Source: a virus (taxonomy: Duplodnaviria; Heunggongvirae; Uroviricota; Caudoviricetes). Taken from it: 18,974 nucleotides of DNA. This document shows positions 1 to 18,974 of this stretch, piece by piece. The notes under the pieces were generated by a model. That model made no database searches and was not told the origin of the DNA. It saw only the letters and a list, made by a program, of their open reading frames with translations. The position numbers and the translations under genes are program-made. The stretch is taken from the IMG/VR virus record IMGVR_UViG_2711768057_000002. One strand, given 5' to 3'. The first letter of the stretch is position 1; each line of letters starts with the position of its first letter.

Positions 1-825
1 CTATTTCTTCTCTGTAATTTTTACACTGTTTTCCAACTGCTTGATGCTGACCTGCGGGGTCGGCAACTCCTCAGGCATGGTTCCGCCAAGTTCCTGAATG
101 GTTTGCCTCACCTTGCTACCCACGTCAAAGTGTGTGGTATTAGCTTGCTGTTTTGAATTCACGCCATCCCGCTTGAGTTTTTCTTCTGTTTGGGTAGCTC
201 GAAAGAGATTAGCCGCCAGTTCTGTTGAACCCATATGATCCAGGATCTTCTGACTCTTTTTCAGCCCCTTCAGTTGGTGGATGGCTTTCTGATCTAATCC
301 ACCATACAGCCCCTGGTAACCATGATTCTGAAATATGGCGAAATCAGTAGCTGTCGCTACCCCAGCTTGCTGTGCTGCCTCAACCAATTGTTTGTTATGT
401 TCTTTCAACTCATTTCTCAGAAACAGACGCTTTTCGTCTTCACGAAGTTGCTTAAATGCTTCATCGTCAGCAAGCTCCTGCCGTCGGGTCTGGATAGCAA
501 AATAAGTCTGCCCTGCCGCAATGACCGGTTTCGCAGGGTCGCCGTTTTGTACTACCAGGTAACAGGCATAGCGGGAGAGATGAACATCTTCAAGTTCTCG
601 TTGAGCCCCTGAACCTAATACAACCATTTTGGTGGTTTCAACGAAATGGTCAGATGCAGCTTGATTGCTGGCTTCGCACGCTTGAGTCGCGCGGGCCAGT
701 ACCTTTTGAAAATTGCGCCAGTCCCGATAATCCAGTAACGGTGCCAATTCTCTAGCTGACCAAAATTCTTGCCCTTCAGTGCCATAATGCCGTATTTCTT
801 CAAAAGGTTGATGATGTTCGTTCAT
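1..825 (-). CDS. dinD: DNA-damage-inducible protein DinD (complete; likely start is the 5th codon of the 278-aa ORF, giving 274 aa)
   Basis: ORF translation from MNEHHQPFEEIRHYGTEGQEFWSARELAPLLDYRDW matches my recollection of E. coli DinD; canonical LexA box lies 46 bp upstream of this start; stop TAG at 1-3. Confidence 0.92.
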   Translation of the reverse strand: MNEHHQPFEEIRHYGTEGQEFWSARELAPLLDYRDWRNFQKVLARATQACEASNQAASDHFVETTKMVVLGSGAQRELEDVHLSRYACYLVVQNGDPAKPVIAAGQTYFAIQTRRQELADDEAFKQLREDEKRLFLRNELKEHNKQLVEAAQQAGVATATDFAIFQNHGYQGLYGGLDQKAIHQLKGLKKSQKILDHMGSTELAANLFRATQTEEKLKRDGVNSKQQANTTHFDVGSKVRQTIQELGGTMPEELPTPQVSIKQLENSVKITEKK

Positions 826-870
826 TGCCCACTCCATGTGATATCGATTGCAAAGAAAGTAAATCTGTAA

Positions 871-2234: not shown

Positions 2235-2675
2235 ATGGTCTTTGCAATGAGCAAATCTAATCTGATCGCGTTCCGCATCCCATCTGAATTGCAGGATGAG
2301 TTTAATCGGTCTGTTCTCGCTTCTGGAGGGGATAAAACCTCCTGGCTTGTTGATGCGATTCGCATGAAGCTGAGACAGACGGAAAAGTCTATTGATTTAC
2401 GAATGCTTGGGCTGGTGGAGCGCATGGAAAAAGCCGCAGCATCGCTTATTGCCGGAAAGCCGAACATCCCACCAAAGCCATATAACGAAACGGCAGTTAT
2501 AAAGATCATTGCCGATACCATCCGACAGGGATTTGATAATGGGCGTGTGATAGCTGAACGGCTCAATGAAGCAGGCTACCAAACAAAAGCTGGTAAAGCG
2601 TGGGATAAAGACATTTACAGCGCGTGGAAGCGTCAGGGTAACAATATTAAAAGAATCAATACGCTGCTTCAGTAA
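2235..2675 (+). CDS. Small DNA-binding regulator: RHH-like N-terminus plus recombinase-type HTH-like C-terminus (146 aa; start may be ATG at 2247)
   Basis: N-terminal LIAFRIPSELQDEFNRSV is a strand-helix pattern typical of ribbon-helix-helix proteins; C-terminal IAERLNEAGYQTKAGKAWDKDIYSAWKR resembles the DNA-binding 'recombinase' motif of serine-recombinase-type proteins; the overlapping antisense ORF 2162-2566 looks non-protein-like. Confidence 0.6.
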   Translation: MVFAMSKSNLIAFRIPSELQDEFNRSVLASGGDKTSWLVDAIRMKLRQTEKSIDLRMLGLVERMEKAAASLIAGKPNIPPKPYNETAVIKIIADTIRQGFDNGRVIAERLNEAGYQTKAGKAWDKDIYSAWKRQGNNIKRINTLLQ

Positions 2676-2704
2676 TTGATCAGTGTATAAATGATATTTA
2701 TCGC

Positions 2705-3682
2705 TCAATCGCTCCCTTTCCGCCCTTCAGCTACAGGGTCGTTGTCGGCGATAACAAAACCTAAGTCCTGAGAGAATCTCTCTCGTGGGAATCCTTTGGC
2801 AGGTAAACCCATTGAATCATATCCACATCCGGGAACATTTGGTTTAGAGTCAATAAGGTCTGCAATTTGCCGAAGCCATGTTGATCCCGGACCAAGTTGT
2901 TTAACTAAGTACCAGATAATACAGATCGCGCTAAAAATCCTCTCGCAACTCTCTGGATGGAGATTAAGTCCGTCAAAGTATTCATTATCCGGTACTGGAA
3001 CTCGGGGATGCTTTCTATTCCATATTCTGGAATGGTGAGCGCAACGATTCCTTATGAGATTAAGGCACTTCAACCATTTTGCAAATGTCTGCTTATTATC
3101 AATGCCAAAACGACGTATAATTTTCCCCTGCATATGACCATTAAGCATCGCATAATATTTAGACATCTGACCAAAATCCCAGGTCTCCACCGCCACCCAA
3201 AATGGAATCTCCTTGCCTTGGCTTCGATGCCATTCAATACAGTCATCTCTGCTTTCGTCTAATTTTACTTTTTGCTTATACACCCAATGCTCGAAGGCAG
3301 ATGAGAATTTTGGATTAATGTATTTTGATGACATGTAGGCAAGTGGATCATTGCGACCAACCTCATGCGCGATGACTGAACGAACATGAATCTCTATTCT
3401 TTCGATAGCATCAATCATCAAAAGACGCAGTTTTTTGTCAAAAAGATATAGATCGTACGTCTTCTCGAAACTGGTACCAGCAAGAAATCGGTCTGTTCTG
3501 TACGAAAGACCTTTATCTGTTGTCGCAATAATTCTTGATGGGTACCAAAAACCTGACAATCGATAATATCCAACCTGCGACAGCTTACGTATCGCACGAT
3601 TTCGATCATTGATAATCATGCCACGTTCAAGTAGCAATCCTAGCAATTCGTGATAGTCCTTATGAGGCTTTGCGGCAATCAT
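2705..3682 (-). CDS. Abi_2-family abortive infection protein (AbiD/AbiF-like), about 325 aa from ATG at 3682 (ORF track extends to a GTG at 3727)
   Basis: Hallmark Abi_2 motifs: N-terminal HELLGLLLERGMIINDRNRAIRKLSQVGYYRLSGFWYP, central LYLFDKKLRLLMIDAIERIEIHVRSVIAH, C-terminal LIRNRCAHHSRIWNRK; AT-rich relative to flanks. Confidence 0.8.
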   Translation of the reverse strand: MIAAKPHKDYHELLGLLLERGMIINDRNRAIRKLSQVGYYRLSGFWYPSRIIATTDKGLSYRTDRFLAGTSFEKTYDLYLFDKKLRLLMIDAIERIEIHVRSVIAHEVGRNDPLAYMSSKYINPKFSSAFEHWVYKQKVKLDESRDDCIEWHRSQGKEIPFWVAVETWDFGQMSKYYAMLNGHMQGKIIRRFGIDNKQTFAKWLKCLNLIRNRCAHHSRIWNRKHPRVPVPDNEYFDGLNLHPESCERIFSAICIIWYLVKQLGPGSTWLRQIADLIDSKPNVPGCGYDSMGLPAKGFPRERFSQDLGFVIADNDPVAEGRKGSD

Positions 3683-3852
3683 AGTGGCGAAACAAAAGAT
3701 AATAAAAGGCCCGACCGTGAAACTCACATGCCTGAAATCGGCGGCGGAGAAACAGAGGATCGGGCTCGGTTGCCCGTAACTCTATCCGAAGTTATCCACA
3801 TGTCAATGCACAGTTACTTAGGAAACTAACATAGATACTATCATCACTCACG

Positions 3853-3875
3853 AAAAACCACTATATGTGGTTTTT
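3853..3875. terminator. Bidirectional rho-independent terminator-like hairpin AAAAACCAC-TATAT-GTGGTTTTT
   Basis: 8-bp stem flanked by an A-tract and a T-tract, so it reads as stem plus U-run on either strand; sits between the 4156 ORF end and the Abi gene start. Confidence 0.5.
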
Positions 3876-4155
3876 ATTCATATCGTTATCCACTACAGGC
3901 TGTGTCAATAATTTTTACCTATTAATTGGGTAATTTCTACATTTTCCTATGCTGGCTAGTTTCTCTACTGAAAAGTTGGCACTCCTTAATCGCTTTTCGG
4001 TTAATACTATCGGTCTTCATATTGCCAGCAGCATACGCCATCCGATAATTTCGATGCTACGCGCGCGTACTTGTCGCAAAATATCAGGCAAAGGCCAGAT
4101 TCAGAACGTCGTGATAACCACCAGCACAACATGAGATGTCATGTAACACGATTTA

Positions 4156-4877: not shown

Positions 4878-6995
4878 CTAGTCATTATCTGGATCATTAG
4901 ATAGCCAAGTAATGATGCCCAGTCTGGCGATGGTCCGTTTTTCCTGTTCAGGAAGAGAGTTAAAAAAACTCTTCCATTGAGGGGAGCGCCTGATACGTGA
5001 ATCAACAATGTGCCCAGGCGCTTTTCCGTGTAGATTTTTTACTGCGCTCTGGAAGGCTGGCGAGGCAATTAATTTATCCGCAGCATCAGCCGCCCCTGCT
5101 CCACCAGCTAATCGAGCTTTACTCGCCAATCTTGCTCCAATATCAGCCCCAGCAATGGCTCCAAGCGATCCAAAATGAGCGCCTACCATCGTGCCTATTT
5201 TTTGAATGTGTTTTGCTGCTAGTTCGTATGGAGCTGTTACCCGATTAAATCTGTTTACAAACTCATTCAGCTTACCAGTAGATATTTCATGCGCTTTAGC
5301 ATTTTTTATTGCTCTGGCAACTTTGTATACATCATATAGTCCGCTCATTGTTTCTTTTGGCAAATGTTCAGCCAAAGTCTTTAGCTGTCCACTGTGTTGC
5401 AAGTTTTGCCACCAATCTGCAAAGCCAGATGGATTAAAGTCGGCCCCACGCTTCCCAGAGGAAAGCATATCTCTTAATGCTGTTCCTACTAGCTCCCTTC
5501 GCAATGTTCTTGATGGAGTATTTTGCATAATCTCACGAAACCCTCTCGCATCACCTTTTGCCATAGATTGAAGAGAATTCGTTACTTTATACGCTATATC
5601 CCCATTAAGTGTTTTCCCGCGAAGATTTACCATTTGCCTTTCTAAGTTTTTTCTCATAGCTACAAGGCGTTGTGCGACTTCGAAATCTCGCAAGTATCCA
5701 GTATTGGATAAGACAGATTTTTGGTCTTCAGCTAAAGCTCCATATAGTCTTGATAGCGCTTCTTTATCAGCATCTTTGTATGGCCCCTGCTTTTTATTTA
5801 GGGCATCACCAACTAAACGCCTTTGCCTGTTTAAATTTGCATACGTTAGGATGCTATCTGGGCCGGGGTTTATTGCTGTAAAAACTCGCTTTTCTATTGG
5901 GTCAAGATTATCCCACCCTCCTAAATCATCAGCGATTTTTTCCAGCATAGTGCTTGTGTTATTTGCTTCGACTTTTGTTCTTGGTGATAGAGCGGAATCA
6001 ACACGTTTATATAACTGATCACTACGGTTTTTTAGTGCTTCCATTCTACTATTTATCTGATAAATATATTTTTCGCTCATAGCTAACGCATCTGGCGCAC
6101 CAGCAACATCATCGATTATCTTGCCAGCACTAGAGGCTAATTCGCTTATTGCTTTATCTTCTTGAGCTTTTAACGCTGATCCTGTCCGTGACTTTAGGGC
6201 TTGCTCTACAGCTTGGTATTGCTCATTTCCTGATAAATGAGAAGGAAGAACTGAATCAACATGAAGCCTATTTGCAGCCTCAACAATTTCTTTCTGAGGT
6301 TTTAGATCTAGCCCTTCAAGCGAAGAGGCAAGATTTGGGTTGCCTTGTGCAGATAACTTACGAATTTTCTCTTCGGCAGGAGTAATCCCCTCAATATCTG
6401 GAATCGAAGAAACATTCTTCTTGGTTAATTTCCCAGCTATTTTATTAATTGCAGGGCCAGCAAGTTCGGCTACAGGGCCAGCCACAGCGCCAATAGCAGC
6501 GCCGGAAGCAACATCGCTATTTGTTCCATTGGCTACAATAGCCCCTTCTCCAGCACCAAGCCCTGCGGCGGCAGCCAGTCTTGCCGCCCCTTTGGGAACC
6601 TGAGAAATAATCCCACCACCACTAACAAATGGCGCTGCTTGTCCAACGAACTCACCAACATCTTGTGCGGTTGATGGTTTTGCCGCTAACTTCTGCTGTA
6701 GAGACTGAATTGCGGCTTGCTCTTCTGGTGTCATATCCTGAAACAGGCCAACACCTTTACCAACATCCATCAATCCACTGAGAACGCCATACATAAAACG
6801 GTCGAAACCGTTAGCATTATTAACAACATTTTCCTGTCTGGAATTTTCCTCTGGTGAAACCAAAGGTGATTGCTGCTGTTCTGGTTGGGCATCAAGCACA
6901 AAACCATCAGGAAGCTGTGAACTATCAGGAAACTGTGAGTTATCAGGTTGTTCATCGAGCACAAAACCTTCCGGTAAGATTACATTTGCTGCCAT
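4878..6995 (-). CDS. Hypothetical 705-aa protein: acidic Pro-rich N-terminus with tandem repeat, Gly/Ala-rich hydrophobic segments
   Basis: Long ORF; its ATG overlaps the upstream gene's stop by 16 nt (translational coupling); no catalytic motif recognised. Confidence 0.8.
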   Translation of the reverse strand: MAANVILPEGFVLDEQPDNSQFPDSSQLPDGFVLDAQPEQQQSPLVSPEENSRQENVVNNANGFDRFMYGVLSGLMDVGKGVGLFQDMTPEEQAAIQSLQQKLAAKPSTAQDVGEFVGQAAPFVSGGGIISQVPKGAARLAAAAGLGAGEGAIVANGTNSDVASGAAIGAVAGPVAELAGPAINKIAGKLTKKNVSSIPDIEGITPAEEKIRKLSAQGNPNLASSLEGLDLKPQKEIVEAANRLHVDSVLPSHLSGNEQYQAVEQALKSRTGSALKAQEDKAISELASSAGKIIDDVAGAPDALAMSEKYIYQINSRMEALKNRSDQLYKRVDSALSPRTKVEANNTSTMLEKIADDLGGWDNLDPIEKRVFTAINPGPDSILTYANLNRQRRLVGDALNKKQGPYKDADKEALSRLYGALAEDQKSVLSNTGYLRDFEVAQRLVAMRKNLERQMVNLRGKTLNGDIAYKVTNSLQSMAKGDARGFREIMQNTPSRTLRRELVGTALRDMLSSGKRGADFNPSGFADWWQNLQHSGQLKTLAEHLPKETMSGLYDVYKVARAIKNAKAHEISTGKLNEFVNRFNRVTAPYELAAKHIQKIGTMVGAHFGSLGAIAGADIGARLASKARLAGGAGAADAADKLIASPAFQSAVKNLHGKAPGHIVDSRIRRSPQWKSFFNSLPEQEKRTIARLGIITWLSNDPDND

Positions 6996-8323
6996 TTTCC
7001 GTTCCTGTAAATGATTTTCTGACCAGTTTTAGGGTTGGTTGCCGTTGCGCCTTCTGATATTCCTCCGGTTGCCGCTTTTGCCTGTCCAGTGCCAGCCTGT
7101 GATGTAGGCTGCCCGGAAACATCGTCAAATAGCTTCGCTTTCCTTCTTTCAAGGCTTTTTCTTAGCCCCTGAGGAATAGTTTCTCCATATGTATCGAGAT
7201 ACTCGTCAACCTGCTGGTTAAACTGCTGCCCCATAGCATTGGCGTTGATTTTTGCGGCGTTAACAATGTTATCCTTTGCCTCCTGCGACAGGCCGTTTCC
7301 AGCATTAAGCTGGTCTATGTATCCTTTGATTTGTCCCCATATGCCATCAGACCGCATTACCTGAACCTGTTCGCCTTCACGAACGACTGACTGCGGGTCA
7401 AGAGATTTCATGTAGTTGAAGATAATCCCAAGTTGGGCAGCGCCAGTATTTACCTTGCTAAGGGCTTGCAGAGAGTTTGCCGCCGCTCTGACAGAGTTAT
7501 AATTTTTGCCAAAATTGGTAATGTCAGAATTTAATCCCTTAATTAAGTCTGCTGACGGCTTACCTTTTTGCCCCAGCTCCATTAGCTTCAATCCCATCTC
7601 ATCTGAGTGAATTTGTGCTCGCTGAGCCCTGTCTAGTTGAGCGTTCTGGATATTTGCCCATCCTCTCGCGTTCTCCATGTCAGCCTGACGCATACTTTCA
7701 TCCAGTCGCCCTTGCTCAAGTCGACGACCTTCCATTTGATCTTTGATATCGAAATACTTCTCATGACCGAGAGAAAACAGCGCCAGATTACCTGCGAAAT
7801 GCTGGAAGCCCTGCGGGTCATTAACCTGCATTTCAGCAATAGTTTCTGGAGGGATACCTAAACGACGCATCTCCTGCTCATTATCCATCATGAACCTGCC
7901 AAATGCGCCCTGACCAAGCGATGAGGCTACCTGTGCTTTGAGCGCCAGATTGCCATAATCATCCCTTTGAGCATCATCGACATAACTCATCCCTTTACGG
8001 ACTTCCTCAAACTCTTCTGGGAATGCTGTAATAAGATTACGCATCTGCTCCCTGTCACCGGACGCATAAGCATCTGCATAACCTTTCTGGAATGCCGCTT
8101 TACGCTCCTGCTGTTGCTGCTGCTTATAAATATCAGCAACTCCAGCCAGACCTCGAAGACCTGTCAGACCAACGTTATTTGCACCTGAGCGAGCCAGTTC
8201 ATTGTTTTCGCGGATCAGACCAAGCGTTGCGTTAATGTCGCTTGCCTTTGGCGCATTCTCATTTTGCGCACCAATGCCAGCCAGAAAACCACCAGAATTA
8301 ATACCCTGTTTCCACGTAGCCAT
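6980..8323 (-). CDS. Hypothetical 447-aa protein, Gln/Asn/Ala-rich, probably largely helical (start ATG 8323; track shows GTG 8335)
   Basis: ATG at 8323 lies 4 nt after the stop of the 57-aa ORF (TAAATCAATG); MATWKQGINSGG N-terminus; no Walker or nuclease motifs seen. Confidence 0.8.
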   Translation of the reverse strand: MATWKQGINSGGFLAGIGAQNENAPKASDINATLGLIRENNELARSGANNVGLTGLRGLAGVADIYKQQQQQERKAAFQKGYADAYASGDREQMRNLITAFPEEFEEVRKGMSYVDDAQRDDYGNLALKAQVASSLGQGAFGRFMMDNEQEMRRLGIPPETIAEMQVNDPQGFQHFAGNLALFSLGHEKYFDIKDQMEGRRLEQGRLDESMRQADMENARGWANIQNAQLDRAQRAQIHSDEMGLKLMELGQKGKPSADLIKGLNSDITNFGKNYNSVRAAANSLQALSKVNTGAAQLGIIFNYMKSLDPQSVVREGEQVQVMRSDGIWGQIKGYIDQLNAGNGLSQEAKDNIVNAAKINANAMGQQFNQQVDEYLDTYGETIPQGLRKSLERRKAKLFDDVSGQPTSQAGTGQAKAATGGISEGATATNPKTGQKIIYRNGKWQQM

Positions 8324-8327
8324 TGAT

Positions 8328-8501
8328 TTACCCACGTCCAGTTAAAGTGTAAGCCAGCGCCTTATCCATTAATCCCCGAGCAATTTCGTGGATCGTTGGC
8401 GCAACTCCTACCTCTGATTTTTTACGCTGCTCCTCCTGAATTTTCTTTATCGCTTCCATTTGCTTCTCACTTATCAATACCGGCTTTACTGAAATAGCCA
8501 T
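8328..8501 (-). CDS. Small 57-aa protein MAISVKPVLISEKQMEAIKKIQEEQRKKSEVGVAPTIHEIARGLMDKALAYTLTGRG (not in ORF track; below its size cut-off)
   Basis: Translated by hand from the minus strand; strong SD AAGGGGG 5 nt upstream of ATG 8501; stop TAA 8328-8330; strand-then-helices pattern compatible with a small RHH-like DNA-binding protein (inference). Confidence 0.5.
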   Translation of the reverse strand: MAISVKPVLISEKQMEAIKKIQEEQRKKSEVGVAPTIHEIARGLMDKALAYTLTGRG

Positions 8502-10237: not shown

Positions 10238-12589
10238 TTAAAAAACATCATAACCCCCCATACCGATCAGACGGGCAAACGCAGCCTGTAGAACTCCGAC
10301 CTCTGGTAGTTCGTAGAACACGCCATTCCCTCGGTCTGGTCTTCCATGCTTCACCAGCCCCATTTGTGCAAGTGATTTACCCAGTAGTGATCTGGCTGCT
10401 GGCTCTTTAAGCTTTTCCCCACGCTCAAGCGACCACGCTACAAATCGACTAACCATATCCTTTGCAAACAAACGGACTTCGCCATTAAACGGAGGTTCAT
10501 TGATTAGCTCGCCATAAAGAAACAATTCAACGCCAGACAGCCCCAGCAAGATTTCTTCACGTAAGGCATCGGTCTGTGGCGCTCGTTGAGGGTCAAAACC
10601 TGAGAGATCCACCCCTTTAAGATGCCAAAGCAACTTTGCGGCACCGCCATCATTAAGCCAACTGTACAGCCGATCAAAATACTCCCGACTCTGTGCTTTT
10701 TCAGGAGATGGCTCAAGCACGAGATAGCGACGCTCTCTTATCCCTGCCTGTAATACCTGTGTGCTGTTACTGGCAAATATCAACCGGGCAAAATTCGGCA
10801 TTGGTTCAGCATCAATTCCCTTGCGCTCAAGGTTAAACGTCGGTTCGCTAATAATCGCTTTAAGTCTGTCAGCTTCAGACGGCTTGTGGATCGTCACTTC
10901 GTCAGCAAATACCAGTAGCTTGTTAGCAAGTATTGAATTGAAGCGCCCTGAAATATGTCCCGCCCCGTTAATGTGGGCGGCGTACTGCCCCAGTATTTGC
11001 AGCAGCGGTTTAACCGTTGTGCCTTTCCCTGTGCCCGGGACAGATTTCATCACGATTGCCACGGACGGTTTTTCATCAGGCTTTTGGATAATGTGCGCCA
11101 TCCACTGGATAAGATATTGGTATGCCTCCTCATTACCGGCACAGACAACCTGCAACAGGTGATTAAGGTATACCGTGCAATCTCCTTCAATTGGTTCCAG
11201 TGCCAGCCCCTCATACAGATTAAAAACATCGTCAGGGCATTTGTCTGGTACTGGATAAAATCCTACGCCTCCTGGCTTGTAGTTCTTCCCACTCCATGAC
11301 AGCCACGCCGATCCCGCCAGCTTTCTGGCGACTCTCGGTTTATGATGAAAATAATGCTGAAATTGTGATAAATCCTCGAAAACGTGCGATACACCGCCGG
11401 TTTGAGAAGGCTTTAGCGACACCACCTTGTGTTTCCCGCCGATGGTGACATGCGTAAACGTCCGGTTGATTTCTTCGAGGACAGCAATTTCATCATCGCT
11501 TAACACCTCGCCAGAACTGATCTCATTCAGCGCCCCGACTGACTGTTTGTGATTTTTCACCTGCGCCCCTTTCCCCCGTGGCTGGTACATCGAATCTTTA
11601 AATGCTGCTGTGGCTGCCGCCAGCCCGTGTTGTTGGTGATAGTCGTTCCAGTCGGCTTTATAGTCAGTCGGTGGCAGAGACACCCAGCCAGCTACGGAAA
11701 TAGCGGCCCTCTCTGCGGCATCTTTCCCCGTGTTGATCCCTCCACTTTCTGAGTCTCCTTGCTGGTGATCGTTATCTGCGGCAATGATTATTTGTGCCTG
11801 CGGATATGTTCTGCGCATGACTTCCGCTACTGGCAACAGGTTGCCAGCGTCGATTGCTGCCACTGTCATTGCGTCAGGGCGAATTAAATGGCACGACAGG
11901 GCGGTAGCCACCCCCTCAGCAATTATGATGCTGTGAGGTCGTTTCTGTGCGTTTATGGCGTGATATGCCCCCCGCTTTGCCGAACCTGTCAGGAGTCTTT
12001 TTTCACCATGTGGGGTAATAGTCTGTGCTGCTGTGACTGCGCCGGATTTATCCACCAGCGCCAGCAACAGAGATCCATCGGGCAACACGGGGAATGTAAA
12101 ATCACCTACCCCTTTCGCAACCAGATAATCAGATTTGCCGTTTACAGCCTTTCTGCGCATGTCATCAAACTGACGGGAAAACGTATCCCGTCTTTGTTGT
12201 TCGTCCTTCTCTGCCCTTTTCAGGCGCTCCTGTTCGCGTCGCTGGCGCTCGGTTTCCAGTTGTTCCCGTTTCTGGCTGGTGGCTTCTGGTGTTTCCGTTG
12301 TCCGGTAATCAATACCCAGAACATCAGCGGCAAGAAGCGCCGCCTCTGTTGTGTCGCAGTTATTTACGCGTTTAATTAAATCCAGCCCATCACCAGCGCC
12401 GCACTGATTACAGATGAAGCTACCGCGCCCGTTGTCATCGAACCGGAATCGATCTTTGCCCCCACATGCAGGGCAGGGAGCATGACGGCGCGGAGAGTCA
12501 GGGACATTTATGTTCAGGCAGCCCAGCACATGAGGCCAGTTGTTTTCAGACGCACTGATAACCTGACGGATAAGATCAATGTTTCGCAT
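10238..12589 (-). CDS. P4-alpha-like primase-helicase (zinc-finger/Toprim primase domain plus P4-family NTPase domain), 783 aa
   Basis: N-terminal Cys motif CPACGGKDRFRF...FICNQCG; Toprim-like IIIAEGVATALS and AADNDH; Walker A MKSVPGTGKGTT and Walker B LLVFADEV; size close to P4 alpha (777 aa); SD GGGGG upstream of ATG. Confidence 0.92.
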   Translation of the reverse strand: MRNIDLIRQVISASENNWPHVLGCLNINVPDSPRRHAPCPACGGKDRFRFDDNGRGSFICNQCGAGDGLDLIKRVNNCDTTEAALLAADVLGIDYRTTETPEATSQKREQLETERQRREQERLKRAEKDEQQRRDTFSRQFDDMRRKAVNGKSDYLVAKGVGDFTFPVLPDGSLLLALVDKSGAVTAAQTITPHGEKRLLTGSAKRGAYHAINAQKRPHSIIIAEGVATALSCHLIRPDAMTVAAIDAGNLLPVAEVMRRTYPQAQIIIAADNDHQQGDSESGGINTGKDAAERAAISVAGWVSLPPTDYKADWNDYHQQHGLAAATAAFKDSMYQPRGKGAQVKNHKQSVGALNEISSGEVLSDDEIAVLEEINRTFTHVTIGGKHKVVSLKPSQTGGVSHVFEDLSQFQHYFHHKPRVARKLAGSAWLSWSGKNYKPGGVGFYPVPDKCPDDVFNLYEGLALEPIEGDCTVYLNHLLQVVCAGNEEAYQYLIQWMAHIIQKPDEKPSVAIVMKSVPGTGKGTTVKPLLQILGQYAAHINGAGHISGRFNSILANKLLVFADEVTIHKPSEADRLKAIISEPTFNLERKGIDAEPMPNFARLIFASNSTQVLQAGIRERRYLVLEPSPEKAQSREYFDRLYSWLNDGGAAKLLWHLKGVDLSGFDPQRAPQTDALREEILLGLSGVELFLYGELINEPPFNGEVRLFAKDMVSRFVAWSLERGEKLKEPAARSLLGKSLAQMGLVKHGRPDRGNGVFYELPEVGVLQAAFARLIGMGGYDVF

Positions 12590-12601
12590 TCTGGCCCCCG
12601 T

Positions 12602-13204
12602 TTAGTGCGTCACTGGTGCTTCTGGGATGCCGTTTTCGTTTAGTTCGGCAATAAAGCTGTTGTGAAGATCGGCAAGCACTTCTCGCCCAAACGAAGTGAG
12701 TGTTCCCTGTTCGACATCGAACATGTTGCTGTAAAAAATGATGGCATTCTTTGTTCCGACATCAACACCATATTTCTCGATCATTGCGCCCTCAATGTTG
12801 TTTGCCATAGCGAGGCGCTCTGCTACTGGATACAGCGGCATGGCGACGATGCCATTGGAATAAACAGAAACCACGGAATGATTGCCACTGTCATCAATAA
12901 TGCTGACGGTGCCGTTTTCCTTTCTCATTTCATTGATGAATGCTGTTGCTATCAGCCAGCGCCACATAATCACGTGATGCTGTGATGTGTAATCGAAATA
13001 TCCCTGGTTGCCGCCACTGGCAATAGCGAGATGTATAAACATGCCTTCATCTGGTTTATCGTCATAATCCCCGGCATCCAGACGATTTACGGCATCAATA
13101 TATGAGACGGTCTCAACGCGTTCTGTCATGCCATCGTTGCTGCGGTGCATGATGTTTACGCCGTCAGGCGTTGCTTCTGCATGGAAAGTTAAGAAATTAT
13201 TCAT
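12602..13204 (-). CDS. Hypothetical 200-aa protein immediately upstream of the primase (start ATG 13204; track extends to 13309)
   Basis: ATG 13204 preceded by SD GAGG 7 nt upstream and located 2 nt after the stop of the upstream ORF (ATGAATAA overlap). Confidence 0.65.
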   Translation of the reverse strand: MNNFLTFHAEATPDGVNIMHRSNDGMTERVETVSYIDAVNRLDAGDYDDKPDEGMFIHLAIASGGNQGYFDYTSQHHVIMWRWLIATAFINEMRKENGTVSIIDDSGNHSVVSVYSNGIVAMPLYPVAERLAMANNIEGAMIEKYGVDVGTKNAIIFYSNMFDVEQGTLTSFGREVLADLHNSFIAELNENGIPEAPVTH

Positions 13205-13418
13205 GTTTCGCCTCGCCTGAATGATTCTGTAACTCATATTTGCCCAACAATTCGTCTGCTTCCTGAATAGCTTCTGGTACGCCATTGAGCAGTGACATAA
13301 CCGCGCCAATCATTAACTTGTCTCTGTTGCTGGGGCTGGCCCCTTCAAGCCAGAACCCTAAAACAGTCTGAACCTGTTCGATGCGACATTGCGCTTCAAT
13401 GAGCTGGATGTTGGTCAT
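13197..13418 (-). CDS. Hypothetical 73-aa protein
   Basis: SD GGAGAG 7 nt upstream; ATGA start/stop overlap with the upstream ORF. Confidence 0.55.
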   Translation of the reverse strand: MTNIQLIEAQCRIEQVQTVLGFWLEGASPSNRDKLMIGAVMSLLNGVPEAIQEADELLGKYELQNHSGEAKHE

Positions 13419-13678
13419 TTCGCACTCTCCACATCGATTAAACCGATATCTATCAGGGAGGTAACTTTTTGTAGCCAGCTATTGATTACTGTCGCCTGTT
13501 CCCCTCCCACCGAGGGAACAATCTCATTCATCACATGAACCAGACCTGTGCGCGCTCTGGTAAGCCGTTCAGTCGCGCAATCTGCGGGAGTGAATGTGTC
13601 TGGATATGGCTCTTCGCGCCCCAGCAATGATTCAATTTCCAGCTCACACGGATGACGATAAATTAAGTTGATATTCAT
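13415..13678 (-). CDS. Hypothetical 87-aa protein
   Basis: SD GGGGGTG 5 nt upstream; ATGA overlap with the upstream ORF. Confidence 0.55.
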   Translation of the reverse strand: MNINLIYRHPCELEIESLLGREEPYPDTFTPADCATERLTRARTGLVHVMNEIVPSVGGEQATVINSWLQKVTSLIDIGLIDVESAK

Positions 13679-13869
13679 TTTTCACCCCCAAGAATTACCA
13701 GCTCGGCACGGGCATCGTTAACCAAAGATGAGCACGCTTTAATCGCATCCACGACATCAGCAGCGTCCATTTCTTCAGCCGAAAGACTGACAGCAATCAG
13801 GACAGCCGCTGCTTGCTCGATTAATTGAAGTGCGGACGTAAGGCGAGGGGTATTAATTGAGTTATTCAT
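13675..13869 (-). CDS. Hypothetical 64-aa protein
   Basis: SD GGGGG 6-7 nt upstream; start overlaps the stop of the 342-aa ORF (ATGAATAA). Confidence 0.55.
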   Translation of the reverse strand: MNNSINTPRLTSALQLIEQAAAVLIAVSLSAEEMDAADVVDAIKACSSLVNDARAELVILGGEK

Positions 13870-14890
13870 TGGTTGCCCCCGTTTTTACTGGCATTTCGCC
13901 ACCTTCCAGCAGGAAATGAACGTCACGAACGGCGAGATCCAATATCGCGAGTAACGCCTTCAGTCTTTCGTCTCGTGAGGGAGAGTTGCTCACCAGAATG
14001 TCGTTAATCACTTCTGTCAGTGTGATGATCTGGCTTGTGCGTTCGAGGGGATCCATATGCACATCGTAGGTTTTAATCATGTGCCACCTCCATGCGGATA
14101 CGACCAGCAAAAAAGCAGACGTGATCGCGCACCAGAGAACGGCGAGCATCGCGTTCAGACTCGGCAGCAATATGATGAATTTTGGCGGTAATTGTCGGGC
14201 AATCGCGGCGAACTGCGGCGATAATCCAGATAAATTGCGGTTTTTGGGTAGGGGTAGTAGCCAGCATGTGGCAGCCTCCTTGATTGATGGTTTATAGCCA
14301 CCGCCCAAGAGACCAATCTTGCTGGCGGTGGACTGTACGGAGTTGGCCTTACTGGCAATCAAGGAAACCAGCCTACCCGAAGGTAGCCCCATACAGCCCA
14401 CCATTGATAAGGTGTGCGTGTGCGCCGATACAAAAAAAGACGCTGGCGCGTCATGTATCGCCTCGATTGTCAGCGGGAGGCCAATCCCGGCACCCGTTTT
14501 ATGAGGTGCCTTATAACCATAAACCGTGTTGCCGCATAACGGCAAGCTCTTTTTTATGGACTCCGAAAACTCACTATTGGAAGCACCAGATGCACAATAC
14601 ATCGCGCTCATTTCGTTAACGTCACGCGCATGGACGAAGGTTTTTGTGGAGTCACTACACGAGCGGAAGACATCATCTACGACCAGAAATTTTCTGGCGC
14701 AGCCGCTGACCTTCTCAATGCTAATATCATCGCCCGAGATTTCTGGTATGGTTAAGGCATCCGTTCCGACCACCAGCAAATGATAAACTTTGCTTGTATC
14801 TGCTGTATTAATGCCTGACTTTGCCGTCATATTGCTGGATTTTGGCGACATACCAGCCAGTGAAAATGTCTTCTTCTGGACGGGTATCAT
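13862..14890 (-). CDS. Hypothetical ORF (342 aa as drawn; possibly composite, see findings)
   Basis: Start at 14890 well supported (SD GGAGG 7 nt upstream, ATGA overlap with upstream gene); the central part has odd composition and an in-frame ATG at 14080 has its own strong SD GGAGGTG. Confidence 0.45.
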
Positions 14891-15066
14891 TGGTTAACCT
14901 CCGCGAACTCCTTCATGAAACGCGCCAGCGGTTGTACGCATGGCGATTGATACCCGTCGCGATAAAACGTCACTCGGTTGTGAGACACGCTTTCGACAGT
15001 AACGAGTGCTCCGTGGGCATCTTTGTAGCGTTTTTGTGGTTGTGGTATTCCTGTTGGCTTAGACAT
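14887..15066 (-). CDS. Hypothetical 59-aa protein (track ORF 14887-15153 trimmed to ATG 15066)
   Basis: SD GGAGG 7 nt upstream of ATG 15066, which overlaps the stop of the antirepressor-like gene (ATGTCTAA). Confidence 0.5.
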   Translation of the reverse strand: MSKPTGIPQPQKRYKDAHGALVTVESVSHNRVTFYRDGYQSPCVQPLARFMKEFAEVNQ

Positions 15067-15892
15067 TGAGCGCCTCCAGACGCTTGGCGAGCCAGCGTTG
15101 CGACAGGCGGGTGAGTTCTCCTTTGCGCTGCTCATATTCCATGCCCATATCAATTAACGTGATATTGGTGCTTTCGAGATATGAGAGGTGCTCAAGCTGT
15201 TCTGCGTTCATATGGTCGCGAGGTTCGCCAGAATAGCCATTTATCCGCGCCCACTGCTTAGCAGTTAGCCCACCAAGAACGATACGAGAAATCATATTGC
15301 TCTCGTTTGTGTAGTGGTGTTGCTGCGTCGTTTTCCCCATCTCGGCACGGGCCATATTCAGCGCATCGCACATTGGCTTAAAGTTGTTTGCGGCACTGAT
15401 ACGGGCTTTTAGCTGGCGACGATAGCGGGCGGCGATTTCAGGCACGCTACGCTGTAATTCTTCCTCGCACTGGATGAAATAACGACGGATAGCGCGACCC
15501 TGATCATTGCGTTCGATCATTGCCAGTTCTTTCGCCATTCCGACACTTAACAGATAGTCTTTGCCGGGTCTGCCAGAGTGCTTAATCTTGCTGTAAGCCG
15601 CGCCATTCGGGCTTTTCCCCAAATTTGGGGAAATTGTTTTATGGACTGAGTAATCGTGCCCAATGGTGAAGTCATATTCAGAGATGCGATCAGTGATCCA
15701 TGTAGAGAAGTCTTTTCCCACGCCCAACGCTTTGTGTAACGCTTTTGCGCTAACAATATTGGTTTCACGCCCACCTATATGACCAGAAATAACCGGGACA
15801 ATTGCGGCAAATTCATTACCGTTAATTGTGCTCAGAGAGGCGTTCAGATGAGGGGCGGCCTCAGAAATTAATCTGCTTTTTTCGATGTTCAT
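15059..15892 (-). CDS. Phage antirepressor-like protein (AntA-type N-terminal domain), 277 aa
   Basis: VSAKALHKALGVGKDFSTWITDRISEYDFTIGHDY matches the AntA/AntB antirepressor N-terminal motif from memory; SD GGAG 8 nt upstream. Confidence 0.65.
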   Translation of the reverse strand: MNIEKSRLISEAAPHLNASLSTINGNEFAAIVPVISGHIGGRETNIVSAKALHKALGVGKDFSTWITDRISEYDFTIGHDYSVHKTISPNLGKSPNGAAYSKIKHSGRPGKDYLLSVGMAKELAMIERNDQGRAIRRYFIQCEEELQRSVPEIAARYRRQLKARISAANNFKPMCDALNMARAEMGKTTQQHHYTNESNMISRIVLGGLTAKQWARINGYSGEPRDHMNAEQLEHLSYLESTNITLIDMGMEYEQRKGELTRLSQRWLAKRLEALNV

Positions 15893-15904
15893 TTTCAGTC
15901 TCCG

Positions 15905-16336
15905 TTAGGCGGCGTTAAACGCGTCCGGGTAGAGTTTCAGAATGTCGGCAATTTCCTGCTGAGAAAGTCCGTTGTGATCATTTATGTTCGCAAGATGGTT
16001 AACATGAGTGATCACTTTCAGAACATCACCACGGCAGGAGAAACGGTAGCGAAGGTGTGTTCCGATACCATCAGGATTCTTTTCGTCGATACGCTCCAGA
16101 GTGATTCCAAGCTGGCGTTCTAACTCTGTTGCATAGTTACGACCAGAAGACAGACGGCAGTAGCGAAGAATGTCATTTTCTGTCCATCCCTCTATACCAG
16201 TACGCAGCATATAGACTCTGGCACGATGCTTTTTCGGTGTGCGCTTTGGTGCTTGAAGGGATTTTGTCAGGGGCGTAACATCAGATACGCGAATATCTGA
16301 ATTAGCCGCCTGTAATGGGCGGTTTTTCTTTTCCAT
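15905..16336 (-). CDS. Hypothetical 143-aa basic protein
   Basis: Start ATG shares one nucleotide with the alpA stop (TGATG overlap). Confidence 0.6.
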   Translation of the reverse strand: MEKKNRPLQAANSDIRVSDVTPLTKSLQAPKRTPKKHRARVYMLRTGIEGWTENDILRYCRLSSGRNYATELERQLGITLERIDEKNPDGIGTHLRYRFSCRGDVLKVITHVNHLANINDHNGLSQQEIADILKLYPDAFNAA

Positions 16337-16539
16337 CAGGCCACCTTCCCGCGGCGTTCTGCTAGCCAGTTGTGAATCTCAACCGCATCAAACGCAGTTA
16401 TTTTTTCTCCCAGCTTTACCGGACGTGGTAGTGAACCGTTTCTTACTTTACGGTCGATGGTGGATACACTAACGCCCAGCAATTCAGCCAGGCGGAAGCG
16501 TCTGATATAGCCTTTTGTAGGAATAGTGTCGGTGTTCAT
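16336..16539 (-). CDS. alpA: AlpA-family phage regulatory protein / excisionase-like HTH protein (67 aa)
   Basis: RFRLAELLGVSVSTIDRKVRNGSLPRPVKLGEKITAFDAVEIHNWL matches the AlpA/Vis-type HTH family pattern. Confidence 0.85.
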   Translation of the reverse strand: MNTDTIPTKGYIRRFRLAELLGVSVSTIDRKVRNGSLPRPVKLGEKITAFDAVEIHNWLAERRGKVA

Positions 16540-16540
16540 G

Positions 16541-16588
16541 CTTCCCGTAACCTCTTAGCGATAGTTGTTGCTTCGTTACGGGAGGAAG
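16541..16588. promoter_or_regulatory. Imperfect inverted repeat CTTCCCGTAAC (16541-16551) / GTTACGGGAGGAAG (16575-16588) in the alpA leader
   Basis: Arms flank a 23-nt loop; the left arm ends 2 nt upstream of the alpA ATG, so in mRNA the SD region could be sequestered; alternatively a DNA operator. Confidence 0.35.
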
Positions 16589-16606
16589 TATCTGTACATA
16601 TATGGA

Positions 16607-16638
16607 CAATAAAAAGGCACAGTAATGATACTGTGCCT
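16607..16638 (-). terminator. Rho-independent terminator (minus strand) after the 321-aa gene: AGGCACAGTA-ATGA-TACTGTGCCT followed by TTTTTATT
   Basis: Perfect 10-bp stem, 4-nt loop, then T-tract on the minus strand; 16 nt downstream of the stop at 16654. Confidence 0.65.
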
Positions 16639-16653
16639 GAATAGTTAGCTACT

Positions 16654-17619
16654 CTACCCCTTACCGTTGGCGGCAGCACGTAAGTGTCTCAAAATCACAT
16701 CTTCATTTGTGATTGCTAACGGTGGAATTTCGTCTTTATGAGCCACTATGCAATCCCGCCACTTCTCAGGGCTTATTTCTTTCTTTTTGCCACGGCATTC
16801 ATCAGGATACTTTGACAAAAGATATATTGCTGATTTGAAAAGTTTTTCCCTGTTTTCAGCATGTCTCTCGGCATTATGGTTGCTATTTTTTATTTCAGGT
16901 ATTAGTTCCTGTTCTACCGCCATTTCGTATCGTTTTTTGCTCTTAGCTGCGTCAAAACTTCCATTAACCTTTGCGTCGTGAAGATATTCTAAATCAGCCT
17001 TTGTTATATAAATGTTTTTATCTGACAGGCTACTCAGGTGAATCTGGGAACTTTGCATTTTGAATTTATATAGATCACAATCAAATGTTGCTTCAAGTCG
17101 CACATATGGCTCTCCACATTCTTGTGAATGATAATGTCGTGTTGTACTACCGCGTACACGCAACAATCCGCATGCAATTGATTTTCTTACAATAAAAGAG
17201 TTTTTGCCAATTTGTTCAAAAACATTTTTATTGTCTCTGTCTTCAACTGTCAGTGGTTTATGTGCATAAAATAGCTCATAAGCACCGCTTTCAGATGCTG
17301 GGATATAAACTTCGTTGCTTGCGCTGGTAATAAGAAAAGGAAATGTAAACCTTACTTCTTCTGGGTACATAAGTAATAAATCAGTTATAAAATCAGCATC
17401 TTTTTTGAAGTGGATGGCGGCATCAGCTTCAATGAAATCAAGAAAGTCAGCATAGACATAAAAGTCTATATGTAGTCTATCTTTCCAATGCCATATATCA
17501 TCAATTTCACAATTTAATAATTTTGATGCTCGCTCTATCGTGCAGTAGTCCAAAGGTGGAATACCTGATTCCTGCCATAAATTTCTATGCACCGCAGTTG
17601 TTTCATGAGAGTCGTTCAT
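16654..17619 (-). CDS. Hypothetical 321-aa protein, AT-rich gene between int and alpA
   Basis: SD AAGGTG 7 nt upstream of ATG 17619; own terminator; markedly AT-rich versus neighbours; no family recognised. Confidence 0.7.
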   Translation of the reverse strand: MNDSHETTAVHRNLWQESGIPPLDYCTIERASKLLNCEIDDIWHWKDRLHIDFYVYADFLDFIEADAAIHFKKDADFITDLLLMYPEEVRFTFPFLITSASNEVYIPASESGAYELFYAHKPLTVEDRDNKNVFEQIGKNSFIVRKSIACGLLRVRGSTTRHYHSQECGEPYVRLEATFDCDLYKFKMQSSQIHLSSLSDKNIYITKADLEYLHDAKVNGSFDAAKSKKRYEMAVEQELIPEIKNSNHNAERHAENREKLFKSAIYLLSKYPDECRGKKKEISPEKWRDCIVAHKDEIPPLAITNEDVILRHLRAAANGKG

Positions 17620-17714
17620 TGCGTCACCTTTTACGCTGCGCCTTATTTTGTGATTGAGCCAGGCGGTAAGGCTTCCCGCTTTTCGCCCCGTCGAGCTAGG
17701 CTCAATCTATTCAG

Positions 17715-18974
17715 TTAGTTCGCCCTTCTGAGAGGCGTTACGTTGTAGTCTTTTCCGCTTTCCAGTGCCACCAGCAGATCAGCCCACTGTGCCAGTGCTG
17801 CTTTACGCTCATCAAAATACTGATGGCGGTTATAAATCCCCTCTACGCCCTTAATGCGATGATTGAGGCATCGTTCCGCCACAACAGGATCAACACCCAA
17901 CGCTGCTAAATGAGTACGTGCGGTGCGTCGGAAGTCGTGAATCGTGAAATTAGGCACATCCGGCATTTCGGCGCGAACCTTAGCCAGTGCTACGGGTAAA
18001 GTGCTTTCCTGAATATGTGGGATCATTCTGTTTTGCATCTTCCTGGCCGGAAGCACCCATGCGCTATTACATGAAAAGGTGTGTAGCTCTCTCAACCATT
18101 CAACGGCTGGGGAAGGTAGAGGTATATCAATAGGGTCTCCGTTTTTGCTGCGTTCTTCCGGCAAATGCCATACCGCACCATCTAAATCAAACTCTTCCCA
18201 TCGTGCGGCGCATAACTCCATCTTACGAACGCATAGTGCCAGCAATAGCTTAAATGTCAGTTCGTTCTGGCGGCTGAATCCTTTTGCGGTGCGCATAGCC
18301 TCGAATAGCCTGATAAGCTCATCGCGAGTTAGCCAACGGTCGCGGGAAACCTCTTTACCACCAGCATCAGATACTTCAAACGCTGAACAAGGGTTTATCT
18401 CCAGAGCGTGGCGTTTTATCCCATAGTCAAAGATACGGCGTGTCCAGCGTAATACATCTGTTGCTATCGTTGGTGCTCCTCGGTCAACGATACCTTTCAA
18501 CATGTCGTCAATGTGGCGTGGCTTAACGTCCTCTACCTTCATATGCCCAATGCAGGGGTTAATATCCTTATCAATTCTCCGGCGAAGGATATCGGGATGT
18601 TTCCATCTCGGAAGTATCTGGCGCTCGAAGTATTCGGAGGCCAGATCTGAAACACGCATGGCGTTTTTCTCAGCCTCCATTTTTGCCAGTGCTTCAGCTT
18701 TTCGTTCCTGTTTCTCTGCTGCTACGTCATAGCCAAGAGCAACTCTGGCTGACAGCTCTTTTGCTGTTTCTCTGGCTTTTGATAGTGACAGTTCGGAGTA
18801 AGAGCCTATAACCATAGCCCGCTGCTTTCCTGCGAGCTTATAGCGGAATCGCCAGAACGGGACTGTGTAGTTTTTGGGGTAGCAAATATAAAGGCCGTTG
18901 CCGTCTGCCTTGCCATCAAATCTGTCTCCCGCCTTTATCCATGCGCGGATCTGCATATCTGTGAGTTTTGGCAT
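17715..18974 (-). CDS. Tyrosine site-specific integrase, P4/CP4-57 family (419 aa, start codon is the last 3 nt of the window)
   Basis: N-terminus MPKLTDMQIRAWIKAG...GLYICYPKNYTVPFWRFRYKLAGKQRAMVIGSYSELSLSKARE is the typical P4-like integrase arm-binding domain; C-terminal catalytic region HDFRRTARTHLAALGV...LNHRIKGVEGIYNRHQY carries the R...H-x-x-R...Y signature. Confidence 0.95.
   Translation of the reverse strand: MPKLTDMQIRAWIKAGDRFDGKADGNGLYICYPKNYTVPFWRFRYKLAGKQRAMVIGSYSELSLSKARETAKELSARVALGYDVAAEKQERKAEALAKMEAEKNAMRVSDLASEYFERQILPRWKHPDILRRRIDKDINPCIGHMKVEDVKPRHIDDMLKGIVDRGAPTIATDVLRWTRRIFDYGIKRHALEINPCSAFEVSDAGGKEVSRDRWLTRDELIRLFEAMRTAKGFSRQNELTFKLLLALCVRKMELCAARWEEFDLDGAVWHLPEERSKNGDPIDIPLPSPAVEWLRELHTFSCNSAWVLPARKMQNRMIPHIQESTLPVALAKVRAEMPDVPNFTIHDFRRTARTHLAALGVDPVVAERCLNHRIKGVEGIYNRHQYFDERKAALAQWADLLVALESGKDYNVTPLRRAN

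Follow-up and report, generated by a model that had tools for sequence, protein, structure and literature searches.

What does the gene between the integrase and alpA contribute to a phage satellite? The question is raised by IMG/VR record IMGVR_UViG_2711768057_000002, an 18,974-nucleotide (nt) stretch of DNA that we refer to as the window. The island in the window is an EcCIMP1-like satellite of the phage-inducible chromosomal island (PICI) type, and its integrase-contiguous gene, here called X, encodes a protein of 321 amino acids (aa). An earlier reading made from the sequence alone had presented X as an AT-rich orphan and a separate transcription unit inserted into the satellite backbone, in a slot that often carries variable defence or virulence cargo.

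Our results indicate that X probably has a part in the satellite's excision/induction switch instead of being free-standing defence cargo. The main support for such a role comes from a gene order shared by 35 of 35 loci, an int–X gap without a promoter or terminator match, selection on a conserved C-terminal domain, cassette replacement, and the absence of X from phage genomes. The more specific reading that we favour, at a probability of about 40 per cent, is that X would be a constitutive partner of Int that serves the switch as a specificity or adaptor subunit. By position it would be the counterpart of iolg, a gene of the PICMIs (minimalist chromosomal islands that are phage-inducible). 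X is a candidate for the element that gives satellite excision/induction its specificity, or else for a new defence carried by satellites.

A gene family bound to int and alpA

The basic description of the gene given by the sequence-only reading stands. X does lie between int and alpA, with all three genes on the minus strand (Table 1), and it is preceded by a good Shine–Dalgarno (SD) sequence. Its GC content of 0.375 is far below that of int (0.496) and alpA (0.50); in a sliding profile, values of 0.35–0.36 across 16801–17600 are flanked by values of 0.45–0.52. At the sequence level it remains true that no domain is recognised. Scans against Pfam, NCBIfam and PHROGs gave no family match for the protein and nothing above noise, a sequence profile search of the PDB gave zero hits at E ≤ 10, and a Foldseek comparison with the BFVD viral structures returned nothing at E ≤ 0.001. 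The AT-richness is a family-wide trait and no mark of recent insertion into this island, since in all 10 loci where int and neighbouring genes were also measured the GC content of X was low (0.34–0.40 versus 0.45–0.57 for int).

The term orphan does not apply. A word-indexed search found 48 relatives of X in Enterobacterales, and when 1.84 billion cluster representatives were scanned with a hidden Markov model, 615 clusters (counted at 50 per cent identity) matched at E ≤ 1e-3 and 179 at E ≤ 1e-10. Members are mostly 270–350 aa long and align across their full length. Their genera include Escherichia, Salmonella, Enterobacter, Klebsiella, Xenorhabdus, Plesiomonas, Pectobacterium, Pantoea, and Aeromonas. 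The named members that we sampled were all annotated as ‘hypothetical protein’, and 57 diverse relatives had no credible match in Pfam or PADLOC. As a kind of gene, X is already known: it is an integrase-adjacent accessory gene of AlpA-type satellites. In the papers that we consulted we found no description of this large unnamed family, of its modular architecture, or of its tie to the int-alpA RNA described below. What was an anonymous hypothetical protein thus becomes a defined and widespread family, with a constrained C-terminal module and a variable module that is swapped as a cassette.

The order int, X, alpA on a single strand was found in 31 of 31 tabulated loci (a set that includes some near-duplicates) and in four more at further attachment (att) sites, for a total of 35 out of 35. 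A profile search of genome contigs yielded four X loci. The distance between int and X is −11 to 142 nt in thirty of the thirty-one tabulated loci and 1,368 nt in the remaining one (L010). Among relatives the gaps fall either at −11 to 30 nt or at about 91–142 nt, and the window, at 95 nt, belongs with the latter. X and alpA are separated by 102–128 nt in 27/31 loci, with about 105 bp being typical. Islands carrying X occupy several unrelated att sites (yicC, der, gcd-adjacent, tRNA-adjacent, and others), and the family accompanies integrases that are just 25–27 per cent identical to that of the window (L011 and L019).

A tblastn search with X against 50,697 phage genomes gave no match. Among ‘plasmids’, X was found in circular Klebsiella records of ~20 kb. 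One of these (L022, CP031371.2, 21,845 bp, circular) carries X, alpA, an antirepressor gene, and a DUF4222 gene; three others (NZ_CP033626.1, CP031370.2, LR134256.1) have tblastn matches to X. All four are Klebsiella ‘plasmids’ of 19–23 kb that were typed as non-mobilizable. The X-carrying records are probably excised circular satellite genomes that were captured in assemblies.

These patterns bear directly on the proposal that X is defence cargo. Under that proposal, X would be a single-gene anti-phage or helper-interference system: a constitutive sensor–effector whose hypervariable domain senses phage components and whose C-domain is the effector. The main arguments for it are the polymorphism of the slot within a constant backbone, with an unrelated gene as one of the occupants; the island EcCICFT073, which is without X, so that the gene is dispensable for the basic PICI cycle; and the superinfection immunity that EcCIMP1-like islands confer, unexplained and without a known defence system (PMC11773190). 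A hypervariable, acidic middle domain, the AT-richness of the gene, and plausible expression in the integrated state point the same way, as does a weak PADLOC match to PDC-S31 (E = 0.002, 15.5 bits). This last match is at noise level and was obtained for only one of fifty-seven members, and PADLOC-DB v2 contained no credible defence-protein match for X or the 57 relatives. What speaks most against defence is that X is linked exclusively to int and alpA and is missing from other hotspots and from phages: the family is bound to this pair at every island locus examined, whereas defence genes usually shift between hotspots. In addition, the C-domain is a 76-aa helical module without an enzymatic or membrane signature, and the island already has a typical variable cargo gene in Abi_2 (2705–3727), whose region is missing from sister islands. 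Cargo is a poor description of a gene that keeps its place beside int and alpA at several att sites, does not occur in the phage genomes searched, and finds no credible counterpart among defence models. We consider a defence function less likely than a part in the switch, though still a live rival.

Cassette exchange and protein architecture

The integrase-proximal slot is indeed variable, as the sequence-only reading had suggested, with at least four different genes found beside a ~99 per cent identical int in E. coli. The int of the window is present in about 320–335 of 5,426 complete E. coli genomes. The 321-aa allele of X occupies the slot in 76–77 genomes, a 316-aa allele, which shares the C-domain and differs in its front part, in forty-one, and a 281-aa allele, a distant member of the X family, in 37–38. 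In another 111–112 genomes the occupant is a 216-aa gene that overlaps the int stop codon by 4 nt; a 474-bp AT-rich non-coding stretch follows it before alpA. We tried this int-overlapping gene of other E. coli yicC islands as a relative of X and rejected it (hhalign probability 0.2 per cent). Polymorphism among islands with the same int and alpA therefore exists, as had been anticipated, and it mostly takes the form of allelic replacement within one family.

UMNK88 and cq9 are among the strains that carry the island of the window. The islands of UMNK88, ETEC1731, and SFE8 share one common backbone. Its identity to the window is 96.7 per cent over 11568–16582 in ETEC1731 and 93.5 per cent over 11568–16854 in SFE8, and int is 99.3–99.4 per cent identical among islands with different X alleles. 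Identity breaks off at 16582 and 17615 around the 281-aa allele and at 16854 and 17727 around the 316-aa allele, positions that coincide with the borders of X or of its variable part. Judging from these breakpoints, the N-terminal and middle parts of X are swapped as a cassette between islands that are otherwise 93–99 per cent identical. Together the four alleles, spread across about 270 sequenced E. coli genomes, provide a natural allele series in near-isogenic islands.

Such an allele series could also have arisen through immunity between satellites, with the X alleles acting as ‘immunity types’ that block excision, integration, or induction of incoming islands sharing the same int and att site. 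Allelic diversification in one family, at one att site and with near-identical int, is the pattern that frequency-dependent selection would be expected to leave, and X is strictly linked to the integration module and apparently co-expressed constitutively with int. This explanation is pure inference, for which we found no precedent in the papers that we read, and it explains the conserved C-domain no better than the other models do. We regard it as very improbable.

Alignments of the family (A1 and A2) and AlphaFold models divide X into three parts: an N-terminal winged helix, a hypervariable middle domain, and a conserved C-terminal helical domain (Table 1). In the predicted structure the N-domain has the strand, two helices, and wing of the winged-helix fold, of the type seen in MerR and Xis. 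Sequence profiles did not confirm it; hhalign gave a probability of 4–5 per cent for the N-domain against AlpA, though the alignment is in register. The family as a whole is acidic, with a median whole-protein pI of 5.6, and the middle domain has a median charge of −10.

The C-domain behaves differently. Between genera it is 62–89 per cent identical in amino acid sequence, and R257 is invariant across the family. The proportion of synonymous differences (pS) ranges from 0.69 to 1.05 and the nonsynonymous divergence (dN) from 0.06 to 0.41. On these values the C-domain is under strong purifying selection, exceeding int and alpA in conservation. In the Pantoea locus (L011), for instance, the C-domain is 60 per cent identical to that of the window, compared with 27 per cent for int and 27 per cent for alpA. 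A DNA-level constraint behind the conserved 3′ end of X was considered and rejected: because synonymous sites are saturated and dN is low, the conservation acts on the protein and not on an embedded DNA element.

Five residues of the N- and C-domains (C26, C37, H44, C54, and C275) are conserved family-wide, with C37 and C275 nearly invariant. These cysteines and the histidine could point to a metal site that the two domains share or to a redox-sensitive contact between them.

Transcription, RNA elements, and a probable role in the switch

The int–X gap in the window is filled by a structured RNA. The int-alpA RNA motif (Rfam RF02996) starts 8 nt past the int stop codon and ends 20 nt ahead of the X ATG, in a full-length match to the model. 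Further matches were found at L002 7914–7979, L009 5330–5395, L013 1619–1685, L017 5916–5981, and L042 4916–4983. In six of six matches the motif lies between int and X, beginning 7–9 nt after the int stop and ending 18–22 nt short of the X start codon, and its neighbours include different X alleles and integrase types. EcCICFT073, an island with no X, lacks the motif. The name of the motif points to int and alpA as its neighbours; here it is placed between int and X, and X rather than alpA may be the gene for which it acts as a leader or regulatory element. An orphan Rfam motif thereby gains a genomic context.

No promoter-like or terminator-like match was found within the 95-bp gap, and in relatives int and X can be as close as −11 to 30 nt. 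X is probably not a separate transcription unit, contrary to what the sequence-only reading had claimed, and its description as an insert in the backbone is not supported either. The most economical arrangement, judging from these signals, is probably an int–X unit that ends at the terminator behind X and is insulated from the helper-inducible alpA operon.

The terminator itself is as near-perfect as had been reported, with a 10-bp stem and a T-tract. It begins 15 nt past the X stop codon; folding of the surrounding 65 nt gives −21.5 kcal/mol (z = −3.7 versus shuffles). Its pairing is retained in relatives by compensatory changes, and the hairpin is therefore a selected structure. We also considered the palindrome after the stop codon as a LexA box and rejected this, since the half-sites come in inverse order (ACAG-N8-CTGT) and the stem covaries as an RNA or DNA hairpin.

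A second hairpin lies in the alpA leader. Its arms covary, being complementary though different in sequence in 13 of 15 non-redundant loci (minimum free energy fold). Examples of arm pairs are CCCCATAAC/GTTATGGGG, CCTGCCA/TGGCAGG, and ATCTGCCGT/ACGGCAGAT. In some relatives the 3′ arm includes the SD, as in the pair CCTCCTGT/ACAGGAGG, which takes it in. From this covariation and its placement, the hairpin is probably an RNA switch that occludes the ribosome-binding site and so acts on alpA translation. A program scan and inspection revealed no convincing sigma-70 promoter for alpA in the ~30 nt between terminator and leader hairpin, and read-through of the X terminator may be an alternative route to alpA expression.

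One hypothesis that draws on this arrangement is that X is a master repressor like Stl of the SaPIs, the pathogenicity islands found in Staphylococcus aureus. X would bind DNA at or near the alpA promoter through its winged helix and keep alpA off until a helper protein binds the variable domain. The predicted MerR/Xis-type winged helix, a variable domain analogous to the sensor domains of Stl, the position of X immediately upstream of alpA, and the lack of a good sigma-70 promoter match for alpA all fit this hypothesis. So does the ~70 bp from the X stop to the alpA leader hairpin, which travels with the X allele in L013, and the literature names no inducer of alpA (PMC6092414). On the other hand, the ‘recognition helix’ is acidic family-wide and the median net charge of the N-domain is −2, we identified no repeated operator-like motif, and alleles with very different winged helices have the same downstream hairpins. 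X is also co-directional with alpA, whereas stl is divergent. Finally, Gram-negative PICIs, the AlpA-type islands, have been described as activator (AlpA) driven (PMC6092414), and EcCICFT073 has no such gene. Taken together, a repressor of this kind is quite improbable.

X does resemble Stl (Rpr) of SaPIs and PICIs in some respects. Like X, Stl is satellite-encoded and plausibly expressed when the island is integrated; in both, an N-terminal helix-turn-helix, predicted in the case of X, precedes a highly variable domain that changes from island to island; and, like X, Stl is encoded beside the integration and regulation modules (PMC6092414). There is no sequence relationship between the two. 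The helix-turn-helix of Stl is of the XRE type, whereas that of X is of the MerR/Xis type and acidic. The stl gene is divergent from the excision/replication operon with int downstream on its own strand, whereas X, int, and alpA are co-directional, and X has an extra conserved C-terminal domain.

The closer precedent is one of position. Helper-induced excision of the Vibrio island PICMI115 depends on iolg; constitutive expression has been proposed for its int and iolg, and its alpA is phage-induced (Barcia-Cruz et al. 2024; PMC10803314). The integrase-overlapping and integrase-contiguous genes (iolg and icg) of PICMIs make up 13 families, to which no fold or function has been assigned (PMC10803314). 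In position, X shares their slot: directly after int, on the same strand, and before alpA. Both are highly diverse and lack an assigned fold or function. Relatives of X can lie as close as −11 to 30 nt to int, and the 216-aa occupant overlaps int by 4 nt. X of the window differs in that 95 nt, taken up by a structured RNA, separate it from int. The X family also comes from islands of about 18–20 kb in Enterobacterales and Aeromonas, unlike the PICMIs of Vibrio, and it has a defined three-part architecture with a conserved C-domain.

In the adaptor reading, then, an integrated island would produce X constitutively along with Int, and the terminator would stop int–X transcription from entering the alpA operon, which is helper-inducible. 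The partner onto which the conserved C-domain docks would itself be conserved, whether as a host factor or as a surface of the complex of Int and AlpA that carries out excision. For the acidic winged helix and hypervariable domain, the ligand to be recognised would be one that evolves fast, most plausibly a protein of a helper phage or of a competitor. X would thereby be a specificity or adaptor subunit of the excision/induction switch, for which iolg of PICMI115 and the variable sensor domain of SaPI Stl would be the precedents.

A bolder version of the adaptor reading would have X as the missing helper-phage sensor of AlpA-type (Gram-negative PICI) satellites. Here the hypervariable domain would bind a helper protein, the C-domain would license Int/AlpA-dependent excision or alpA expression, the X allele would set which phages mobilise the island, and the int-alpA RNA leader would control X synthesis. 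The inducer and the mode of alpA activation by helper phages are unsettled for Gram-negative PICIs (PMC6092414) and for PICMIs (PMC10803314). We hold this version to be a long shot.

Several results weigh against the adaptor reading. X alleles differ among islands with the same int and backbone, and this variation argues against a classical recombination directionality factor (RDF) that reads att DNA. The N-domain is acidic (family ‘recognition helix’ consensus C-E-V-[DE]-D-L-L-H-W, median charge −2), and neither X nor the 57 relatives had a significant match to the HTH_17, Phage_AlpA, or MerR profiles. Because the winged helix is acidic and has no significant match to AlpA or HTH_17, canonical DNA binding by it is doubtful. 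The fold of the C-domain found no informative structural match. Co-transcription of int and X is inferred solely from the lack of consensus signals.

Two further points against the adaptor reading come from other genomes. K. pneumoniae carries a stand-alone chromosomal relative of X (WP_071177718.1, 273 aa; L041 4986–5807) between a cupin gene and cynR. It matches X over the N and middle domains with an hhalign probability of 99.4 per cent and is without the conserved C-domain; no integrase is annotated next door in its gene table, which is incomplete. In EcCICFT073, int and alpA are separated by a 365-bp gap with no gene in the slot, and this island excises and transfers (PMC6092414). Because it is mobile with an empty slot, X is no universal requirement. 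As the alternative to defence, the sequence-only reading had named a conserved core component of the satellite family with a recognisable fold. X goes halfway towards that description: it is conserved as a component in this position, and its fold can be recognised in part, but it is not universal, given the empty slot of EcCICFT073.

Comparison with known winged-helix proteins of the AlpA/Xis/MerR kind (HTH_17, Phage_AlpA, the GIsul2 excisionase 8c3t, Pukovnik Xis, TorI, and RdfS) gave no significant sequence match to X. These proteins are 50–100 aa long with basic recognition surfaces, whereas X is 321 aa long and acidic, and adds a ~140-residue variable domain and a conserved C-domain. Three individual genes were set aside as candidates. 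YfjH (318 aa), between intA and alpA in the K-12 prophage CP4-57, is on the opposite strand and has no BLASTP or hhalign similarity to X. EcCIMP1_002 was set aside as a relative by its description alone (~1/10 the size of UvrB; PMC11773190). SEN1998 of ROD21 is an AlpA-like RDF placed elsewhere in its island.

The island and its other features

The window holds a whole island of ~18 kb between yicC and dinD; that it covers the whole follows from the Bro-N open reading frame (ORF) at its left end, which is chromosomal dinD. It extends from the dinD side as far as the start codon of int, with attR expected between about 837 and 1690. The coordinates of the features discussed are collected in Table 1.

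Table 1. Coordinates of X, its parts, and associated elements. Positions are those of the window unless a locus is named.
Feature	Position	Strand	Remarks
int	17715..18974	-	Tyrosine integrase, 419 aa, P4-type; Arm-DNA-bind_3, Phage_int_M, Phage_integrase; window ends at int ATG; would be first gene of the int–X unit
int-alpA RNA motif (Rfam RF02996)	17640..17706	-	Full-length model match, 60.6 bits (gathering score 35.8)
SD of X	17625..17630	-	AAGGTG, 5 nt ahead of ATG; direct sequence reading
X ORF	16654..17619	-	ATG start, 321 aa; unnamed family specific to the int–alpA slot
X residues 20–58	17446..17562	-	Predicted winged helix-turn-helix of MerR/excisionase type; acidic
X residues 59–200	17020..17445	-	Hypervariable acidic beta-rich middle domain (alignments A1, A2; DNA breakpoints); part exchanged between alleles
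X residues 201–245	16885..17019	-	Conserved ‘DL-x-IT...L’ strand and helix, then variable linker
X residues 246–321	16657..16884	-	Conserved C-terminal helical domain; AERHAxNREKLFKSAIYLLSKYPDECRG..KEISPEKWRDCI..H.DEIPPL.ITNEDVILKHLR
Terminator after X	16606..16638	-	Stem 16638..16615, 10 bp (5 G-C), 4-nt loop, then TTTTTATTG
alpA leader hairpin	16543..16583	-	Core CCCGTAAC-N23-GTTACGGG; 3′ arm between alpA SD and ATG
alpA	16336..16539	-	67 aa; Phage_AlpA/HTH_17; first gene of helper-inducible operon (literature)
dinD (chromosomal)	1–837	-	Bro-N ORF; first 151 nt 100% identical to dinD in L045
216-aa slot occupant (WP_001059729.1, E. coli)	L014 1127–1777; L015 2326–2976		Unrelated to X; iolg-like arrangement

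The gene order of the island is int, X, alpA, a 143-aa gene, and then AntA, DUF4222, and Ash with C4 and isrK RNAs, followed by a primase-helicase (Zn-ribbon, Toprim, DUF5906), homologues of P22 ejection proteins, Abi_2, and PerC. This order fits the plan of Gram-negative PICIs, which has four zones (integration, Bro, replication, and late; PMC10111431). Another island that it resembles is EcCIMP1, a PICI that a P22-like phage mobilises (PMC11773190).

An Inj_translocase gene, a homologue of the P22 injectosome translocase (451 aa, E = 1.5e-73), and then a gene for a 705-aa protein lie at 4878–8335 on the minus strand. By analogy with EcCIMP1, which likewise has ejection-protein genes in its late zone, their presence suggests a P22-like helper.

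The ash-family gene (13862–14890) contains a C4 antisense RNA (14321–14408, 79.2 bits) and isrK (14433–14509, 65 bits), both on the minus strand. C4 and isrK are the P4 CI/seqA-type pair of immunity RNAs described for the Bro zones of PICIs, and the pair is also present in four other loci (L004, L017, L022, and L044).

The Abi_2 gene encodes an AbiD-like protein of 340 aa on the minus strand, inside a segment (2645–3995) that adjoins PerC (1688–1975). Two sister islands that share the backbone (L045 and L046) lack the whole segment. From this comparison, the Abi_2 region, near the far end of the island from int, looks like the island's real hotspot for variable defence cargo.

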